Assembly (NCBI GenBank): GCA_045590995.1
Contig: JAZNRY010000101.1
Location: 5,823 to 69,822 of the forward strand
Direction of reading: 5' to 3'
Length of the DNA: 64,000 nucleotides
From: Paludibacteraceae bacterium
GTDB lineage: Bacteria; Bacteroidota; Bacteroidia; Bacteroidales; Paludibacteraceae
Shown here: in pieces, positions 9,099 through 57,166 of the stretch
How the letters are laid out: each line of letters opens with the position of its first letter
Position numbering within the stretch: position 1 is the first letter of the stretch
Position numbers and translations under genes: made by a program
The notes under the pieces: generated by a model
What the model was told of the DNA's origin: nothing
Databases searched by the model: none
The model's input: only the letters and a program-made list of their open reading frames with translations

Positions 9099-9173
9099 CA
9101 CCGTGTTTTTCATGGTATTAGATTTAAGGTTAAGTAAAGATTGGGTTGTCGGGATGACAATCCTTCTTTTTTT
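9099..9173 (+). ncRNA. candidate short RNA (promoter to first terminator)
   Basis: A consensus promoter is followed about 50 nt later by a strong hairpin plus T-run. The alternative reading is a 32-aa hydrophobic peptide at 9112-9210. Confidence 0.3.
9143..9173 (+). terminator. intrinsic terminator after the orphan promoter
   Basis: GGGTTGTC-gggat-GACAATCC followed by TTCTTTTTTT. Confidence 0.5.
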
Positions 9174-9285
9174 ATGTATATCCATCCTTTCGGACTTTGG
9201 CCTCGCATAAAATGATCAGGTGTACCTTCGAGGACACCTTACCCTCGAAACTACGGTCGCATTATGAAGCCCATGTGCTACAAAA

Positions 9286-16408: not shown

Positions 16409-18694
16409 TTAAGTATCTACATCAACGGAAACGACAGTACCCTTGCAATCCGTCTGCTGCAAGACGAGGTGGATACATTCGTGCAACAGTTGCTTGGCAT
16501 GTCGGATATTCGCCCCTTGCTCAACACGCAGGCGCAGTTGGCGGATATATTGGTTGTTGCGACGAGAAACTTGCGGAGTAATCACGCTGGAGATACGAGT
16601 CCCAAAAATATCTTGTAATGCCTGCATTAATACACGACTGCAATGCTCCAAACGGCGTTCATCACGATGACGCAAAGTGATCATCATTAACCGATGAAAT
16701 GGGGGGAAATAGAACATTTTGCGTTCGCTAACTTGCTGTTGGTAGATTCCTTTGAAATCGTGTGCGCATAACATTGTATATAAAGGATTCTTGGGGTCGA
16801 AAGTCTGAATCATCACCTCTCCTTGCTTACCACTGCGCCCTGCACGACCAGACACTTGTTCCAGCATTTGAAATGCGTACTCTGTACTGCGAAAATCAGG
16901 TTGATTGACCAGCATATCCGCTTGCAAAACCACCACCAAGGAGACATCATCGAAATGTAGTCCTTTCGTAACCATTTGTGTGCCGATAAGAATATCCACT
17001 TCGTGGCGCGCGAAACGGTCAATGATATGCTGATAAGCGTCCTTGCGGCGCGTAGTATCCAAATCCATACGCGCCAAGCGCGCATTCGGAAAAAGTCCTT
17101 GTATCTCCTCCTCCAAACGCTCCGTGCCAAATCCTTGTAATCGCCAAGGCGTACTACATTTGGGGCAATGGGAGGTTAGGGGATTAGGCGATGAGGCAAC
17201 GAGGCGATGAGGCGAAGGGGTGTAGCCGCAAGAGTGACAGATGAGGGTGTTGTGGCTCTTGTGGAAAGTCATGCTGACATCGCAGTTGGGACACTTGGGA
17301 ACCTCACCACAATTTGGACACTGCAAGAAGGGGGCATACCCTCTGCGATTTTGGAATAAGATTACTTGCTTGCCTTTAGCAATCTCCTCACGAATACGAA
17401 ATACCACAGGGTCGGCAAAATGACCATACATCTCTTTGCGATGATATTGGCGCTGCAAGTCCACCAATGTAATCTTTGGCAACTGCAAACCGCGAAAACG
17501 CTCTGTCATTTCGACAAGACTGTATTTACCCGACAATGCATTGTGGTAAGATTCGATAGAAGGAGTGGCTGTGCCTAATAGTACTTTAGCACCATACCAC
17601 TGTGCCATCATTATTGCCGCTGAACGCGCATGGTAACGCGGAGCAGGGTCCTGTTGCTTGTAACTGGGTTCGTGTTCTTCGTCCACAATGACCAAACCTA
17701 AATTGGAGAAAGGCAAGAATATCGCCGAGCGGGCGCCAAGGATGAGATTTGGATATTGGATATTGGACGCTTCGCTATTGGATATTGGTAATAGGCTGGA
17801 ATATATCTCGGTGCGTTCGTCGCTACTGAAGCGCGAATGATAGACCAATACTTGATTGCCAAAAACGGCTTGTAAGCGTTCGGTGAGTTGGGTAGTCAGG
17901 GCAATCTCGGGTACGAGATAAAGAACTTGTTTGCCTTGCTTTAGCACCTCGTCTATGAGATGAATATACACCTCCGTCTTGCCACTGGAGGTTACGCCAT
18001 GCAAGAGGGTTACATTCTTTGTTTTCCAACTTGTGCGTATCTCTTCAATCGCTCTTGTTTGTTGAATATCAAGGGTGTGCAACGCTTGTATTTGCCCTGT
18101 ATATTGACGCAAACGCGAGACTGGTCGTTCTTCTTCTAAAAATATTCCCTTGTCAATGAGCGTGCGCAATATTGTGCTACTCACTTTGCTCTCTTCTAAT
18201 AGTACGCGGCGTTCCACACCATTGTTATTCATGCGCAGGAAACAACGCAAAAGTTGCTCCTGCGACTTGGCACGGCGCAGACTATTCAATGCTAATTCTT
18301 GCTGGCGAGGATCTGCAAGCGAAGGATGTAAGTGAATGTACTGAGTGGTGCGAGCAGTATAGTTGTCGTCGATGATTCCAGCGGGTAATGCCGCTGCCAT
18401 TACTTCGCCTAATGTGCACATGTAATACTCCGCCATCCATTGCCAAAGACGCAATTGATGGGGCGTAACAACGGGTTGAGTGTCAATAATATCCACAATA
18501 TCTCGCACCTTGACCGAAGCAGGCAACTCGCCTTCGTGAAGGCGATAAACAACACCCGTAATAGTCTTCTTGCCCAATGGTACTAATACGCGCATGCCTG
18601 CCAATGGTGTTGGCATATTAGATGGGACACGATAGGTGTAGGCATCGGCAATTGCCAAGGGTAAAATTATATCAATCAATATGGTGTTGGACAT
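16409..18694 (-). CDS. priA: primosomal protein N' (replication restart helicase)
   Basis: GVTSSGKTEVY Walker A, VDEEH, and Cys pairs CPNCGEVPKCPNCD...CHSCG...CPKC. It contains two repeat-derived in-frame segments (see findings). Confidence 0.95.
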   Translation of the reverse strand: MSNTILIDIILPLAIADAYTYRVPSNMPTPLAGMRVLVPLGKKTITGVVYRLHEGELPASVKVRDIVDIIDTQPVVTPHQLRLWQWMAEYYMCTLGEVMAAALPAGIIDDNYTARTTQYIHLHPSLADPRQQELALNSLRRAKSQEQLLRCFLRMNNNGVERRVLLEESKVSSTILRTLIDKGIFLEEERPVSRLRQYTGQIQALHTLDIQQTRAIEEIRTSWKTKNVTLLHGVTSSGKTEVYIHLIDEVLKQGKQVLYLVPEIALTTQLTERLQAVFGNQVLVYHSRFSSDERTEIYSSLLPISNSEASNIQYPNLILGARSAIFLPFSNLGLVIVDEEHEPSYKQQDPAPRYHARSAAIMMAQWYGAKVLLGTATPSIESYHNALSGKYSLVEMTERFRGLQLPKITLVDLQRQYHRKEMYGHFADPVVFRIREEIAKGKQVILFQNRRGYAPFLQCPNCGEVPKCPNCDVSMTFHKSHNTLICHSCGYTPSPHRLVASSPNPLTSHCPKCSTPWRLQGFGTERLEEEIQGLFPNARLARMDLDTTRRKDAYQHIIDRFARHEVDILIGTQMVTKGLHFDDVSLVVVLQADMLVNQPDFRSTEYAFQMLEQVSGRAGRSGKQGEVMIQTFDPKNPLYTMLCAHDFKGIYQQQVSERKMFYFPPFHRLMMITLRHRDERRLEHCSRVLMQALQDIFGTRISSVITPQVSRRNNQYIRQLRLRVEQGANIRHAKQLLHECIHLVLQQTDCKGTVVSVDVDT
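17171..17220 (-). repeat. 16-nt direct repeat translated inside the priA zinc-binding region
   Basis: AGGCGATGAGGCAACG and AGGCGATGAGGCGAAG. Encodes SPHRLVASSPNP between CHSCG and CPKC. Confidence 0.6.
17747..17795 (-). repeat. related ATTGGAT/ACGCTTCGCTATTGG repeat translated inside priA
   Basis: ATTTGGATATTGGATATTGGACGCTTCGCTATTGGATATTGGTAATAGG. Translated as LLPISNSEASNIQYPNL. Confidence 0.65.
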
Positions 18695-26905: not shown

Positions 26906-28714
26906 TTAATCCGAAGCAACAATGTCTTGTACCATCATTTGGATGGTGGTATAATGGTTGAAGGTGTTTTCGTTGAGTTCGTAGCAGATGTCCACGGCAT
27001 TGCCGTTTTGAATATACTCTGCCATATCGGCACGCCCGAAGGCGATGCCTGTGATAGCGCTCATGCGGTCGGTGACATCCAATCGCAAATGCTCACGCTC
27101 TTTGCCCACAGCGCGCGTGTCGCGGTGATTGATCAGTCGGCGCGATACAAACAGCGGGCGCGGATTACCTGGACCAAAAGGTTCTAAGTGACGCAGCACA
27201 TTGTAGAAGGACTTGGTAATATCGCCCAACTGCAACTCTGCCTCAATATCCAATGTGGGTTGCAACTGATTCGGTTGTATATGCGCTGCCACATACGCTT
27301 CAAAGCGTTGCTTAAACTCTTGTAAATCATCAATATGCATGCTCAGTCCAGCCGCATATTTATGTCCGCCAAAGTTAGTGAGCAAGTCATGGCACGAATC
27401 AATAGCAGCATAGATATCAAATCCTCCTACCGAACGAGCCGAGCCTGAGATGATACCATCCTCGCCTGCGGTGAGAACGATAGTAGGACGGTAGTAGGTT
27501 TCTGTGAGGCGTGATGCGACAATACCCACAACGCCTTTGTGCCAATGAGGGGCATAGACTACGGTCGAATGGCGGTTAGCGAAGGCGGGGTCGTCTTGCA
27601 ATTGCAGCAATGCCTCTTTGGTGGTTTCTGTGTCGCAGTCGCGGCGGTCATCGTTGTGCTGATTGACTTCTTCTGCTTGTTGGCGTGCAAAAACAGGGTC
27701 GTCGGTCAGGAGCAGTTCTACGGCTGCGCGACCAGATTTCATGCGTCCACAAGCGTTGATGCGCGGCCCAATCTTATATACTAATTCATTGATTGTTATC
27801 TTCTTTGCCTCAATACCTGCCACTTGCATGATTGCCGATAAACCCGTGAAAGGTTGGGTGTTGAGTTGCTGAATACCGAAGTGCGCCAAGATTCGGTTTT
27901 CGCCTGTGATAGGCACGATATCCGAGGCAATGGACATAGCGAGCAACTGCAATAGTGGCAGAAGCCTCTCGCCTGATAGCCTAATAGCCTCATTGCCTTT
28001 CGCTTCAATTAAGTATCTTTGGGTATATGCTTGCGCCAGTTTGAAACCGACTCCGCAGCCTGAAAGGTCTTTGTATGGGTATGGGCAATCGCTGCGCTTC
28101 ATATTCAGCACTGCTACAGCATTGGGTAATTCGTCGCCAGGGGTATGGTGGTCGCAGACAATGACATCAATGCCTTTACTATTGGCGTAGGCGATTTTCT
28201 CAACGGCTTTGATACCGCAGTCAAGCGTGATAATCAGACTACATCCTTGCGCTACTGCGTAGTCTATACCTTGCGTGGATACGCCATAACCCTCGGTATA
28301 TCTATCGGGAATATAGTAGTCGATGTTGGACGGCGTTCCGCCTATTGGGTATTGGACGCCCTGCGGGCTATTGGCTATTTGACCATTATCCATTATCCCC
28401 TCCAAAAACCGATACATCAGTGCCACAGCAGTGGTGCCGTCCACATCATAGTCGCCGTAGATGAGGATTTTCTCGCCTCGTGTGATGGCTTGGTGCAGAC
28501 GCTCTACGGCTTTGTCCATGTCCTTCATGAGGAACGGATCATGCAGATTGTCCAGCGATGGGCGCACAAAAGCGCGTGCCTCATCAGCGGTCTGTATGCC
28601 ACGCACGACCAACATACGCGCGGCAGCGGAACTGATGTTCAGTTCGCGCTCCAACTGCTGTTGCACCTCCTGTTCCACCGCAGTCAAATGCCGTATGTTC
28701 CATTGGTAGGTCAT
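26906..28714 (-). CDS. recJ: single-stranded-DNA-specific exonuclease RecJ
   Basis: IYGDYDVDGTT, ITLDCG, VCDHH, and DHHA1 motif GGHKYAAG. It carries an in-frame repeat insert at 28325-28382. Confidence 0.95.
   Translation of the reverse strand: MTYQWNIRHLTAVEQEVQQQLERELNISSAAARMLVVRGIQTADEARAFVRPSLDNLHDPFLMKDMDKAVERLHQAITRGEKILIYGDYDVDGTTAVALMYRFLEGIMDNGQIANSPQGVQYPIGGTPSNIDYYIPDRYTEGYGVSTQGIDYAVAQGCSLIITLDCGIKAVEKIAYANSKGIDVIVCDHHTPGDELPNAVAVLNMKRSDCPYPYKDLSGCGVGFKLAQAYTQRYLIEAKGNEAIRLSGERLLPLLQLLAMSIASDIVPITGENRILAHFGIQQLNTQPFTGLSAIMQVAGIEAKKITINELVYKIGPRINACGRMKSGRAAVELLLTDDPVFARQQAEEVNQHNDDRRDCDTETTKEALLQLQDDPAFANRHSTVVYAPHWHKGVVGIVASRLTETYYRPTIVLTAGEDGIISGSARSVGGFDIYAAIDSCHDLLTNFGGHKYAAGLSMHIDDLQEFKQRFEAYVAAHIQPNQLQPTLDIEAELQLGDITKSFYNVLRHLEPFGPGNPRPLFVSRRLINHRDTRAVGKEREHLRLDVTDRMSAITGIAFGRADMAEYIQNGNAVDICYELNENTFNHYTTIQMMVQDIVASD
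28325..28382 (-). repeat. in-frame palindromic-unit repeat element (copy in recJ)
   Basis: TTGGACGGCGTTCCGCCTATTGGGTATTGGACGCCCTGCGGGCTATTGG. Translated as ANSPQGVQYPIGGTPSN. Confidence 0.8.
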
Positions 28715-31859: not shown

Positions 31860-32705
31860 TCAAATCTTCTTGATTTCGAAGTGGTCCACATCTTTCCACA
31901 GCGGGAGCACCTCGCGGAAGTGGTGGAGTTTGGCAATATCAAAATCGGCAATCTTAGTGCCCTCTTCATCGTCTGCAAAAGACACAATCGGTTGCAAACG
32001 CGTATCATACGCCACCGAATGACCATTATAATGCAAGCCCATGCCGTCATCGCCCACGCAGTTCACCGCAGCAATATAGCACTGGTTCTCCGTAGCACGC
32101 GCTGCAATGAGCGCATCCCAATACTGAATACGAATATCGGGCCAGTTAGCTACCACCAAAATAATATCATAGTCACTTCCCGACTGATTGCGCGCCCAGA
32201 CAGGAAAACGCAAGTCGTAGCAGACAAGCAAGAGAATCTTCACACCCTGATACTCGAAGATACAGCGTTCCTCAGCAGGTCGGAAGAACTTATCCTCGCC
32301 TCCGTGGGCATACTGGTGGCGTTTGTCTTGTATCTGCACCTCGCCATGCGGCACTACCATAAAACCGCGGTTGACGAGCTTCGCTTGGCTATTGGACGGC
32401 GTTCCGCCTATTGGACGCCTTAAAGGGCTATTGGACGCTGCGCTATTGGAAATTGGGAAGCAGATGAATGAGCTCGTGATGGCTATCTCGTATTGGTCCG
32501 CTATGCGTTGGAGGGTGGTCATAATTTCCCCGTCCATTGTTTCTGCCAACTCAGGATGATTTGTGCAGAATCCTGTCGCAAACATCTCTGGCAGTACCGC
32601 CACATCGGCTTTCCCTGCCAATGCAGCGATACGCTGTTCTGCAAGGCGAAGGTTGGTCTCCTTATCCGCCCATGCGATGGGGTATTGTAGTAATGCTATT
32701 CGCAT
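31860..32705 (-). CDS. carbon-nitrogen hydrolase family amidohydrolase (YafV/omega-amidase-like)
   Basis: MRIALLQYPIAW..VAVLPEMFATGF (Glu) and LLVCYDLRFP (Cys). It carries an in-frame repeat insert at 32388-32457. Confidence 0.8.
   Translation of the reverse strand: MRIALLQYPIAWADKETNLRLAEQRIAALAGKADVAVLPEMFATGFCTNHPELAETMDGEIMTTLQRIADQYEIAITSSFICFPISNSAASNSPLRRPIGGTPSNSQAKLVNRGFMVVPHGEVQIQDKRHQYAHGGEDKFFRPAEERCIFEYQGVKILLLVCYDLRFPVWARNQSGSDYDIILVVANWPDIRIQYWDALIAARATENQCYIAAVNCVGDDGMGLHYNGHSVAYDTRLQPIVSFADDEEGTKIADFDIAKLHHFREVLPLWKDVDHFEIKKI
32388..32457 (-). repeat. in-frame palindromic-unit repeat element (copy in C-N hydrolase)
   Basis: ATTGGACGGCGTTCCGCCTATTGGACGCCTTAAAGGGCTATTGGACGCTGCGCTATTGG. 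Translated as SNSAASNSPLRRPIGGTPSN. Confidence 0.8.
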
Positions 32706-56056: not shown

Positions 56057-57166
56057 ATGGCAACGCTCACTCCTATTTTTTCGCAGGCGGAGATTTGTAC
56101 CGCGCAAGAGTTTATCAATCAGTCGAATAACATAGTTATTCTCACGCATATGTCGCCTGACGGCGATGCGATGGGGTCATCGTTGGCAATGCGCCATTTC
56201 TTAGAGGCGCAGGGCAAGCATGTGTCAGTGATTGTGCCGAATGCTTTTCCTGATTTTTTGGCTTGGTTGCCCAAGGCCAATGAGGATATTATTTACGAGA
56301 CGCATCGTGCAGAGGCAGACGCGTTGCTGGAGCAGGCAGATTTGGTCATTTGCACCGATTTCAACGAGCCAAAGCGCATTGGCTCGTTGGGCGATAAGCT
56401 CCTCTCGCTCACCTGTAAGAAGATGATGATTGACCACCATCTCCACCCAGCCGATTTCCCCGATTTGACCCTGTCTTATCCCTCTTCCCCCTCCACCTGC
56501 GAACTCGTATATCGATTAATAACATCCCTATCGCCAATAACCAATAGCCCGCAGGGCGTCCCATATCCAATAGGCGGAACGCCGTCCATTAACCAGAATA
56601 TAGCCACTTGCATCTATACGGGCATGATGACCGATACGGGCAATTTCTCTTTCAATTCCAATTACCCTGAAATGTATCAAATTGTCGGTGAATTAGTGTC
56701 TTTTGGCGTGAATAAGGACGAGATTTACAACCGTGTCTTCAATGCTTATTCGGCGGATCGTATGCGCCTTATGGGTTATTGTTTGTATCAGAAGATGCGT
56801 ATTTTCCCAGAGTGTCATACGGCGCTCATTTATTTGAGCCGCAAAGAGTTGTATCGTTTCAATTTCCAGTCGGGTGATGCAGAGGGTATTGTGAACTTGC
56901 CTTTGCAGATTAAGGATATTCACTATTCTTGTTTCATGCGCGAGGACAAGGTCAATCCTACCGAAGTGGCGTTAGCGGGAGGCAGCAAGACCAAGATTAA
57001 GATCTCGCTCCGCAGTCAGGGTGACCGTCCTGTGAATGTCTTTGCAAAGGATATTTTCGGCGGTGGTGGTCACGCCAATGCTTCGGGTGGCGAGTATTAT
57101 GGTCCTCTTATCGAAGCGGTGCAATTGTTTATTGATAATTATCCGCAATATTTCGCCAAAGAATAG
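56057..57166 (+). CDS. nrnA: DHH/DHHA1 phosphoesterase (NrnA-like oligoribonuclease/pAp phosphatase)
   Basis: Trimmed to MATLTPIF (ATG 56057, after promoter 56002-56032). HMSPDGDAMGS, MMIDHH, GGGGHANASGG. It carries an in-frame repeat insert at 56534-56593. Confidence 0.75.
   Translation: MATLTPIFSQAEICTAQEFINQSNNIVILTHMSPDGDAMGSSLAMRHFLEAQGKHVSVIVPNAFPDFLAWLPKANEDIIYETHRAEADALLEQADLVICTDFNEPKRIGSLGDKLLSLTCKKMMIDHHLHPADFPDLTLSYPSSPSTCELVYRLITSLSPITNSPQGVPYPIGGTPSINQNIATCIYTGMMTDTGNFSFNSNYPEMYQIVGELVSFGVNKDEIYNRVFNAYSADRMRLMGYCLYQKMRIFPECHTALIYLSRKELYRFNFQSGDAEGIVNLPLQIKDIHYSCFMREDKVNPTEVALAGGSKTKIKISLRSQGDRPVNVFAKDIFGGGGHANASGGEYYGPLIEAVQLFIDNYPQYFAKE
56534..56593 (+). repeat. in-frame palindromic-unit repeat element (copy in nrnA-like gene)
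   Basis: Reverse complement of the recJ copy, about 45 of 49 nt identical. Translated as ITNSPQGVPYPIGGTPSI. Confidence 0.8.

Follow-up and report, generated by a model that had tools for sequence, protein, structure and literature searches.

An in-frame segment of a Paludibacteraceae recJ gene is probably a copy of a lineage-specific hairpin-repeat family tolerated as protein loops

Rickettsia palindromic elements (RPEs), reportedly described by Ogata et al. in 2000, are short, lineage-specific, hairpin-forming repeats that lie between genes and in frame inside unrelated housekeeping genes, where they are translated as extra surface segments, and that are absent from the orthologues of relatives. 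RPE-1 is a single palindrome of about 100–150 bp. RPE-4 and RPE-6 have been equated with the short CGTC-type repetitive extragenic palindromes (REPs), which are reported from Bacteroidetes and have no known transposase, and both REPs and RPEs occur inside open reading frames (ORFs), often those of DNA replication and repair genes, according to Di Nocera et al. (2013; PMC3733652). Since REPs in genes and CGTC REPs in Bacteroidetes have already been described, the phenomenon treated here has precedent. Its setting is a 64,000-nt stretch of DNA from a Paludibacteraceae bacterium (contig JAZNRY010000101.1, positions 5,823 to 69,822; 'the window'), in which the recJ gene (26906..28714, minus strand; 602 residues with DHH, DHHA1 and RecJ_OB domains) contains an array of mini-hairpin units at 28326..28398. 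The placement in Paludibacteraceae rests on 94% identity to a protein of a named MAG (metagenome-assembled genome); exact-protein look-ups of RecJ and of the hydrolase treated below returned no record. We consider this segment to be probably a copy of a non-coding, REP/RPE-like repeat peculiar to gut Paludibacteraceae and tolerated in proteins as loops. The family is dispersed and lineage-restricted, keeps its hairpins across different stems, is laid out in head-to-tail arrays, varies by indels of whole units, and passes a reading-frame filter within genes.

In functional terms the arrays are a Bacteroidota counterpart of RPEs, which are their closest parallel. The first-pass annotation, made from the window's letters, had likened the recJ segment to RPEs; the likeness holds for in-frame copies in unrelated genes and fails for architecture. 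Instead of one long palindrome, the arrays consist of units of 15–22 nt, whose number varies between strains; of 180 junctions among the loci listed, 176 join units head to tail and 4 are inverted. The hosts differ too, a free-living gut anaerobe of Bacteroidota here and an obligate intracellular alphaproteobacterium in the case of RPEs.

The exact 21-mer GGACGGCGTTCCGCCTATTGG occurs three times in the window, at 28328(+), 32394(+) and 56567(−), against a chance expectation of 0 (none of 100 dinucleotide-preserving shuffles gave a match). These copies lie in recJ, in a C–N hydrolase gene and in an NrnA-like gene, and all three are oriented alike and use one frame with respect to the host gene, which bears out the original observation of one block recurring in three genes. 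A second module, GGACGCCCTGCGGGCTATTGG, is found exactly twice, at 28354(+) and 56541(−). The recJ and NrnA-like blocks are identical at 46/49 nt and the recJ and hydrolase copies share an identical stretch of 23 nt, small revisions of the approximately 45/49 and 24 nt first counted. On the gene-sense strand all three copies have the form CCAATAG-hairpin-CGTCC, with PIGGTPS as the translation of the GGCGGAACGCC unit. The translated segments, ANSPQGVQYPIGGTPSN in recJ, TNSPQGVPYPIGGTPSI in the hydrolase and SNSPLRRPIGGTPSN in the NrnA-like gene, are those originally given. The sequence ...MDNGQIANSPQGVQYPIGGTPSNIDYYIPDR would be an example of a peptide spanning an array junction. A scan for clustered TATTGG added a fourth, degenerate array in priA; the three loci first recognised are therefore genuine but not the full set, and no array beyond these four was found in the 64-kb window.

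In the gene sense, the recJ array (28326..28398, minus strand) reads ggataatggataatgg tcaaatag CCAATAG-cccgcagggc-gtCCAATAC CCAATAG-gcggaacgcc-gtcc and encodes (G)IMDNGQIANSPQGVQYPIGGTPSN. It contains two units on the minus strand, each with a 4-bp stem: one at 28328..28348 with hairpin GGCGGAACGCC and a GAA loop, read as PIGGTPS, and one at 28354..28374 with hairpin GCCCGCAGGGC and a GCA loop, read as NSPQGV. The GCCCGCAGGGC unit is connected to the next by the heptamer CCAATAC (Gln-Tyr), by which a TAG stop is avoided in that phase. Adjoining them is ccattatccattatcc (28383..28398, plus strand), two linker heptamers of opposite orientation that form the remnant of an inverted left arm; the block had been correctly located but drawn too short, the element extending over approximately 28326–28398 with ccattatccattatcc included. 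The insert falls between DHH motif I (DYDVDGTT) and IDYYIPDRY.

The hydrolase array (32389..32456, minus strand) consists of CCAATTT, CCAATAG-cgcagc-gt, CCAATAG-ccctttaaggc-gt, CCAATAG-gcggaacgcc-gt and CCAATAG, encodes PISNSAASNSPLRRPIGGTPSNS, and lies in a C–N hydrolase/amidohydrolase gene (PF00795; 31860..32705, minus strand). The NrnA-like array (56527..56592, plus strand), cctatcg ccaataa CCAATAG-cccgcagggc-gt cccatat CCAATAG-gcggaacgcc-gt ccattaa, encodes LSPITNSPQGVPYPIGGTPSIN within a DHH/DHHA1 phosphoesterase gene at 56057..57166 (plus strand), the ORF of which possibly starts upstream at GTG 55982. In priA (primosomal protein N'; 16409..18694, minus strand) the array occupies 17747..17795 on the minus strand and reads cctatta ccaatat CCAATAG-cgaagc-gt ccaatat ccaatat ccaaat; it encodes LPISNSEASNIQYPN, with the peptide PISNSEASNIQYPN, and includes the DNA mini-hairpin GCGAAGC. 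Across the window, each array points the way its host gene runs, whichever strand that is, and no switch is seen in the cumulative GC skew.

A degenerate pattern covering both modules was run against one genome per species; the copy number and host range given here are lower bounds. At least 116 stretches matched, of which at least 108 are loci in at least 33 metagenome-assembled genomes (MAGs) of Paludibacteraceae/Bacteroidales from the guts of sheep, buffalo, yak, deer and cattle; many of these loci are orthologous, and the counts do not represent independent events. The remaining 8 stretches are isolated, chance-like matches in unrelated phyla. Four Latescibacterota genomes (loci L011, L039, L065 and L088) have one conserved match, CCAATAGGCGGCAGGGCGTCC, at a single orthologous site, which we judged to be a chance match to the degenerate pattern, there being no array around it. 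When viral contigs were searched with two patterns, all that appeared were scattered chance matches in GC-rich surroundings of no relevance, and carriage by phages was ruled out on this evidence. No Rfam family was matched at any array, with the window searched at gathering thresholds and one array of 330 nt at E ≤ 1. In addition to the seed arrays, 44 others are present in the 108 listed loci, a density of about 1 per 19 kb (loci estimated at ~830 kb, 108 × 7.7 kb) against 4 per 64 kb, or ~16 kb, in the window. The multi-locus family proposed from the window copies is thus upheld: some units are intergenic, and others lie within 33 or more unrelated genes.

A structure-aware census recovered 338 units among the loci listed. 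Each unit, 15–22 nt long, consists of a heptamer linker, a perfect hairpin starting with G and ending with C, and then GTCC. The linker CCAATAG has the variants CCCATAG, CCTATAG, CCATTAG and CCGATAG, and the hairpin-less heptamers CCAATAT, CCAATAC and CCAATAA are scattered among the units. In this census the commonest hairpins are GGCGGAACGCC (86), GCGAAGC (49), GCCCGCAGGGC (48) and GCCCGAAGGGC (19), accompanied by dozens of rarer ones with other stems, such as GCTCGCTTGCGAGC, GCCGCTCCAGCGGC, GCCTCTCCGAGGC and GCAGCGAAGCTGC. The stems are of 2–6 bp, all G–C, and fall into at least 10 different sequences, every one with complementary arms; stem sequence therefore changes while complementarity stays. 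When inserts were anchored by their flanks only, blind to the hairpin, a terminal stem of at least 3 bp was present in 35% of the unique inserts against 2.4% in shuffles. Loops on the CCAATAG strand are GAA in 161 units, GCA in 64 and GTA in 15, and 71% are GNA triloops, the usual form being such a loop on a stem of 2–5 bp. The flank before the hairpin is ATAG in 310/338 units and TTAG in 26/338, and no linker yields GTAG.

Most arrays are unidirectional and 15–70 nt long, with 1 to 13 detected units. An occasional pair of facing arrays produces a composite of ~115 nt. One intergenic array, in another Paludibacteraceae MAG (L071, 3560–3885), spans ~330 nt between recJ and tdk (thymidine kinase) and comprises ~14 head-to-tail units, mostly with a 22-nt period of CCCATAC CCAATAG CGAAGCGT; the matching site in the window holds a 141-residue ORF and no array.

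Structurally, the closest known repeats are the tagged REPs of PMC3733652. Both are short GC-rich hairpins with conserved unpaired flanks and sub-families of compensatory stems, lying mostly between genes near gene ends, with a minority in ORFs. GTAG REPs differ from the arrays in their flank, which is ATAG here. The CGTC and CCA motifs that mark the two ends of CGTC REPs also occur in the present unit (CCAATAG-hairpin-CGTCC), but in a polarity that appears mirrored relative to the published CGTC-stem-loop-stem-CCA. The stems of CGTC REPs are of 8–9 bp, start with A–T and enclose loops of 4–5 nt, whereas ours are of 2–6 bp, start with G–C and enclose mostly 3-nt loops; and they form mostly head-to-head dimers with negligible head-to-tail arrangement, in contrast to the 176 tandem and 4 inverted junctions counted here. 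Hairpin-less heptamers interspersed within arrays, and a tandem layout in place of HH or TT dimers, further set the present family apart from tagged REPs.

It is nevertheless conceivable, though unlikely in our estimation, that the units are true REPs mobilised by a REP-associated tyrosine transposase (RAYT) or an IS200/IS605-type Y1 transposase encoded elsewhere in these genomes. The hairpin flanks (A/T)TAG and CGTC resemble the GTAG and CGTC tags of the two REP super-families, each of these has members recorded within ORFs, particularly those of DNA repair genes, and 5/33 hosts here act on DNA (RecJ, PriA, Mfd, TopoIII and MutS2), a small sample that recalls the excess of replication and repair genes among hosts of intragenic REPs in Di Nocera et al. 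Set against these resemblances, the tag is ATAG or TTAG and never GTAG; CGTC lies 3' and CCA 5' of the hairpin, apparently the mirror of the published CGTC format; the GC-only stems of 2–6 bp differ from those of 6–13 bp, or 8–9 bp starting with AT, in published families; and no Y1 transposase turned up in a low-sensitivity search of the window and of ~1 Mb surrounding the arrays.

With genes called by a crude longest-ORF greedy procedure (87% coding overall), the 338 units divide into 185 that are intergenic or in short dubious ORFs, 131 that are sense in long genes and 22 that are antisense in genes. The family is thus enriched outside genes, yet present inside at least 33 unrelated host genes. 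In these at least 33 host gene clusters the insert is in frame, conserved domains lie on both sides of it and the ORF is intact. By NCBIfam the hosts include a sigma-54 response regulator, a MATE transporter, RecJ, MurF, MurG, PriA, Mfd, TopoIII, MutS2, MnmA, PepD, a ZigA/CobW GTPase, MalQ, GH149 phosphorylase, MltD, PhoB, a DltB-like protein and FloA, among others. Intergenic copies occur in either orientation (18 against 10 in unidirectional spacers), many of them directly upstream of starts or downstream of stops. At orthologous sites in L006, L066, L078, L080 and L101, an antisense array (...CTATTGGTAATGAAAAAG...) stands 2–3 nt from an ATG, so that in several species it covers the gene's ribosome-binding region. 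Antisense in-frame insertions, GRFANGRRSAYWVMDALRAKG and DIGRSHSELSDASLLGNG, are seen respectively in a 466-residue ORF that is CinA-like by eye (L113, 1344–2744) and in a PhoB-type regulator (L045, 1869–2666); the antisense orientation, though rare, is therefore tolerated.

Frame use within genes is uniform. All in-gene sense GGCGGAACGCC units (45/45) are read CCA ATA GGC GGA ACG CCG TCC, giving PIGGTPS, and all such GCCCGCAGGGC units (23/23) are read xCC AAT AGC CCG CAG GGC GTC, giving NSPQGV. The third phase of CCAATAG, C CAA TAG, is a stop, and because of this linker stop the dimer CCAATAG-CCCGCAGGGCGT-CCAATAC-CCAATAG-GCGGAACGCCGT-CC is open in one sense frame only. Heptamers that fall in the stop-prone phase are always CCAATAT or CCAATAC (Gln-Tyr), with a final G in 0/63 against 78% in the other phases, a figure that is partly circular because 'in gene' means in an open ORF by definition. 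A filter imposed by linker stops explains why recJ, the hydrolase and the NrnA-like gene use the same frame. The surviving frame yields peptides rich in Pro, Gly, Ser, Thr, Asn and Gln, such as NSPQGV-QY-PIGGTPS-NS; the unused alternative frames of single units give Arg-Arg (NRRNAV, PIARRAS), and antisense frames give GRRSAYW or TAFRLL. Selection on the frame-dependent peptide may account for the 131:22 sense bias. As judged from the maintained frame, the recJ segment is predicted to be translated; no feature supporting an intein, an intron or another removable insert was found, and frame and stop avoidance point to translation.

The absolute use of one frame (45/45 and 23/23), and the recurrence of the peptide in ~20 unrelated proteins, might be taken to mean that PIGGTPS/NSPQGV is a protein motif selected for interaction, modification or localisation. 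We regard this as very improbable. More units lie between genes than within them; TAG stops in the linker are enough to leave the dimer with a single open frame; host proteins are found in the cytoplasm, the membrane and the periplasm; in close strains the peptide is missing or its place is taken by other fillers derived from repeats; and nucleotide identity, third codon positions included, goes far beyond what selection at the protein level needs. A reading as an O-glycosylation-type or interaction motif was accordingly rejected, given the intergenic position of most units and the sufficiency of stop codons as an explanation of the frame.

Allelic variation was followed in the 120 best RecJ homologues (83–100% identical), the 120 closest hydrolase homologues and NrnA homologues 73–99% identical. 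RecJ ranges from 588 to 657 residues, with the differences falling at two internal hot spots and in a short variable C-terminal tail. Site 1 has at least 8 alleles: the window form EGIMDNGQIANSPQGVQYPIGGTPSNI, longer forms in which RSAAAMGRSQSELMDNG is added to it, EGVQSPIADCQSPNI (44 proteins), SGIGNRTAMPIGNRNTDDEPISDIRYPLPAI (23), QNLASNLSPLTFSL (~20), DKVILEQGTKSQDII and EAIRREGYEAKGAEI. Of these, QNLASNLSPLTFSL or DKVILEQGTKSQDII stands where the element would be. Site 2 is IEAKGNEAIRLSGER in the window and most proteins and VDNGRSQSELMDGAEHLMDNGPIANSPQGVQYPIGGTPSNSEASI instead in ~25. The sites combine independently: P0017 has neither insert, the window site 1 only, P0065 site 2 only, and P0014 and P0045 both.

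One and the same composite of ~115 nt has a different position in recJ depending on the strain: L121 carries it at site 1, whereas L071, L120 and L027 carry it at site 2. Its order is that of inverted units ATAATGG-ACG-hairpin-CTATGGG-ACG-CTCGCAAAGCGAG-CTAATGG, the centre ATAATGG TCAAATAG, and then sense units; the composite is an inverted one and folds as four local mini-hairpins. The window recJ copy corresponds to it minus two left-arm hairpins (51 nt) between ATAATGG repeats. Allele P0002 (L121) retains these two left-arm units, with 51 nt more than the window, and loss of the 51 nt accounts for the ggataatggataatgg remnant at 28383–28398. When window positions 28230–28470 are set beside L121, recJ and the P0002 gene are identical over ~77 nt upstream of the element and ~79% identical over ~95 nt downstream (hand count); on this alignment recJ is a mosaic whose breakpoint falls in the array or close to it, so that the array may serve as a recombination junction. 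In L119–L122 the genes upstream of recJ vary between strains (Fic/HTH_DeoR, an LHH toxin domain, faint Tli3-like matches, PDDEXK_3), so that accessory genes adjoin the hypervariable recJ. The RecJ proteins P0004 and P0045 end in ...IIPSSESDNGRPS, which looks like an antisense repeat unit lengthening the 3' end of the ORF.

The NrnA loop is likewise hypervariable. The P0236 allele is free of repeats (RLSDDGQLSTD; 355 residues), P0123 contains a perfect triplication of the 33-nt unit [CCAATAG cccgcagggcgt cccatat ccaataW], and no target-site duplication is visible when empty and filled NrnA sites are compared. In P0156, P0234, P0237 and P0240 the same loop is filled by a different repeat, (DLQRS)n, with protein lengths of up to 461 residues. 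The precomputed Pfam hits of P0234, P0237 and P0240 include Pentapeptide PF13599 and PF00805, those of P0156 neither; the Pentapeptide call is likely to be a false 'domain' derived from the repeat. The hydrolase array is near-fixed; in P0326 two units, exactly 39 nt, are missing from between c[ca]atag repeats, and P0359 holds a different short filler. Such frame-keeping changes of unit number (33-nt unit once or three times in NrnA, 39-nt loss in the hydrolase, 51-nt difference in RecJ) are also a property of in-frame variable-number tandem repeats (VNTRs). VNTRs, however, are locus-specific, and near-identical mini-hairpin units occur here at more than 100 loci.

These alleles bear on a further possibility, that the segment is an ancient lineage-specific loop with fortuitous nucleotide similarity to other loci, or an artefact of metagenome assembly. 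All data do come from MAGs and metagenome contigs and nothing else. The same alleles, however, are found in many independent NCBI, ENA, JGI and Logan assemblies (P0002 in 8 contigs, P0236 in 5), and we consider this explanation barely credible: it is refuted by the 21-mer statistics, with no chance match expected, by the 46/49 nt identity between unrelated genes, by the independent assemblies, and by the existence of insert-free alleles. Such alleles, which the first-pass annotation had proposed to look for, belong to a set of alternatives in very close orthologues: the site-1 alternatives of RecJ, the repeat-free NrnA of P0236 and the hydrolase of P0326, shorter by exactly two units. The segment is thus no ancient loop devoid of nucleotide likeness, and the similarity among the loci survives alignment.

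The inserts appear to lie in loops. Aligned with 8y30_A, RecJ has ~20 residues unmatched where its insert sits, after the helix that follows DHH motif I and before the strand with IPNRF; the NrnA insert leaves a gap of 14 residues in the alignment with 4py9_A, a homologue from Bacteroides fragilis; and the hydrolase has 28 residues against 6 in the nitrilase-fold structure 2e11_A, a gap of ~22. The loop placement suggested at first reading is therefore supported by solved structures for all three proteins. In an AlphaFold model of the NrnA-like protein (mean predicted local distance difference test score, pLDDT, 76.5), residues 162–175 are coil with pLDDT below 50, between helices 147–162 and 180–192. 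The RecJ model, built from 17 close homologues, is poor (mean pLDDT 41.7), and its assignment of residues 110–127 to coil is in weak agreement only.

How such arrays might arise can be sketched. Whole units are gained and lost, as in the 39-nt loss, the 51-nt loss and the 33-nt triplication, and these changes could come about by hairpin-promoted slipped-strand or template-switch replication, or by unequal recombination between linkers. New loci would be seeded by a copy-paste step, either a REP/RAYT-type transposition of single-stranded DNA (ssDNA) hairpins or templated repair or gene conversion from other copies. Quasipalindromes are corrected by intramolecular template switching, and it could be this process, and not selection, that keeps the stems perfect. 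Selection would then filter the in-gene copies, multi-unit sense arrays being open in essentially one frame, and survivors would be confined to permissive surface loops and translated as disordered insertions. The element would have no function for RecJ, being tolerated selfish or neutral DNA that also makes length-variable protein loops.

Several points weigh against reading the recJ segment as a copy of a mobile, tolerated repeat. The arrays yielded neither a mobilising enzyme nor target-site duplications nor terminal inverted repeats: tblastn with IS200, IS608 and RAYT-like queries, a search of low sensitivity, returned nothing below E = 0.6 in ~1 Mb of array-bearing loci and the window, and no Y1-transposase family (PF01797) is among the 25 of 80 window Pfam families listed, those 25 being housekeeping only. 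Element-free recJ site-1 alleles still hold other heptamer repeats at the same position. In L119/L120 and L122 these fillers are cctctaa cctttcg cctctaa cctttag, or a head-to-head composite of atcggga.../ccgatat x3; such runs point to cassette-like replacement or turnover and not to clean insertion, and suggest several related linker 'dialects' at RecJ site 1. In orthologous sets the units are conserved at ~0.98 against 0.8–0.9 for the flanking coding DNA, a figure biased upwards by the use of an exact 21-mer to choose the loci. This conservation, the strand asymmetry of the loops and the sense bias of 131:22 could equally stem from a role played by the DNA or the RNA. The counts rest on crude gene calls and on many orthologous loci, and translation is predicted from frame maintenance. 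Overall, the proposal in the first-pass annotation of a copy-pasted repeat tolerated as a protein loop is supported and essentially correct, with mobility presumed, as no transposase, target-site duplication or clean empty recJ site came to light.

Some of the same observations could mean that the arrays are functional nucleic-acid signals, either ssDNA mini-hairpins with a part in transcription, recombination, priming or the restart of replication, or mRNA structures that influence stability or translation, in which case the protein loop would be a by-product and the coding copies doubly constrained. GNA triloops make up 71% on one defined strand and include GCGAAGC, GCGCAGC and GCGTAGC; these three are DNA mini-hairpins that Hirao and colleagues called 'extraordinarily stable' and that occur where priming takes place on phages and plasmids (PMC13037366). 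The hairpin is retained across at least 10 stem sequences, the units exceed flanking codons in conservation, the CCAATAG strand is the sense strand in genes by 131:22, orientation in the window follows gene direction on both strands, and many intergenic copies lie just before starts or after stops. We think this unlikely all the same, as copy number and presence vary among near-identical strains, with total absence in some NrnA proteins and at RecJ site 2; positions relative to genes are not conserved; intergenic copies run both ways (18 and 10 in unidirectional spacers); perfect stems are possible through template-switch 'correction' and need no selection; and the conservation estimate is biased by the choice of loci. 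We would advance only as a speculation, and a decidedly doubtful one, that the arrays constitute a distinct class and more than a variety of REP, namely tandem, strand-specific strings of GNA mini-hairpins, spaced by heptamer linkers, laid down and resized by a dedicated or host ssDNA activity (priming, template-switching or Y1-type) and co-oriented with transcription. Were it true, it would imply, as a by-product, rapid, cassette-like loop diversification in essential enzymes such as RecJ, NrnA, PriA, Mfd and MurF of an uncultured rumen/hindgut lineage.

Returning to the tolerated-repeat interpretation, two other kinds of repeat invite comparison. The cyanobacterial short tandemly repeated repetitive (STRR) heptamer sequences, reportedly described by Mazel et al. 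in 1990, resemble the present family in their tandem short units, pure heptamer runs being found here as well; to our knowledge STRRs are intergenic and have no hairpin module. Bacterial miniature inverted-repeat transposable elements (MITEs), small non-autonomous repeats in which in-frame insertion is possible, are reviewed in PMC3184786. The arrays share with MITEs their small size, non-autonomy and residence in ORFs without disruption; they differ in that most copies lack terminal inverted repeats and target-site duplications and in that the units fall far below the 70–300 bp of MITEs, only the rare head-to-head composite of ~115 nt resembling one. We found no description of this repeat family, in a literature search that was incomplete and is no proof of absence. 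The view that nothing of the kind was known from Bacteroidota stands for the family itself and has to be qualified more generally, as CGTC-tagged REPs in Bacteroidetes are reported in PMC3733652.

With these arrays, free-living gut Bacteroidota would join Rickettsia and a few Proteobacteria and Verrucomicrobia as bacteria in which selfish repeats are translated inside essential genes, with an architecture, head-to-tail mini-hairpin arrays, that differs from the earlier cases. The arrays mark natural permissive insertion sites in RecJ, NrnA, PriA, Mfd, MurF, MurG and other proteins, and provide ready VNTR-like markers for strain typing of uncultured ruminant gut bacteria. In MAG annotation and phylogenomics they cause misalignment, false domain calls and inflated divergence, the DLQRS runs being an example. 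They also offer a tractable case of how short hairpin repeats spread without an evident transposase. Away from the arrays, the window's only Rfam match is at 9103–9176 on the plus strand, to RF04319, the Bacteroidetes FopS small RNA family, with 77.2 bits against a gathering score of 56.

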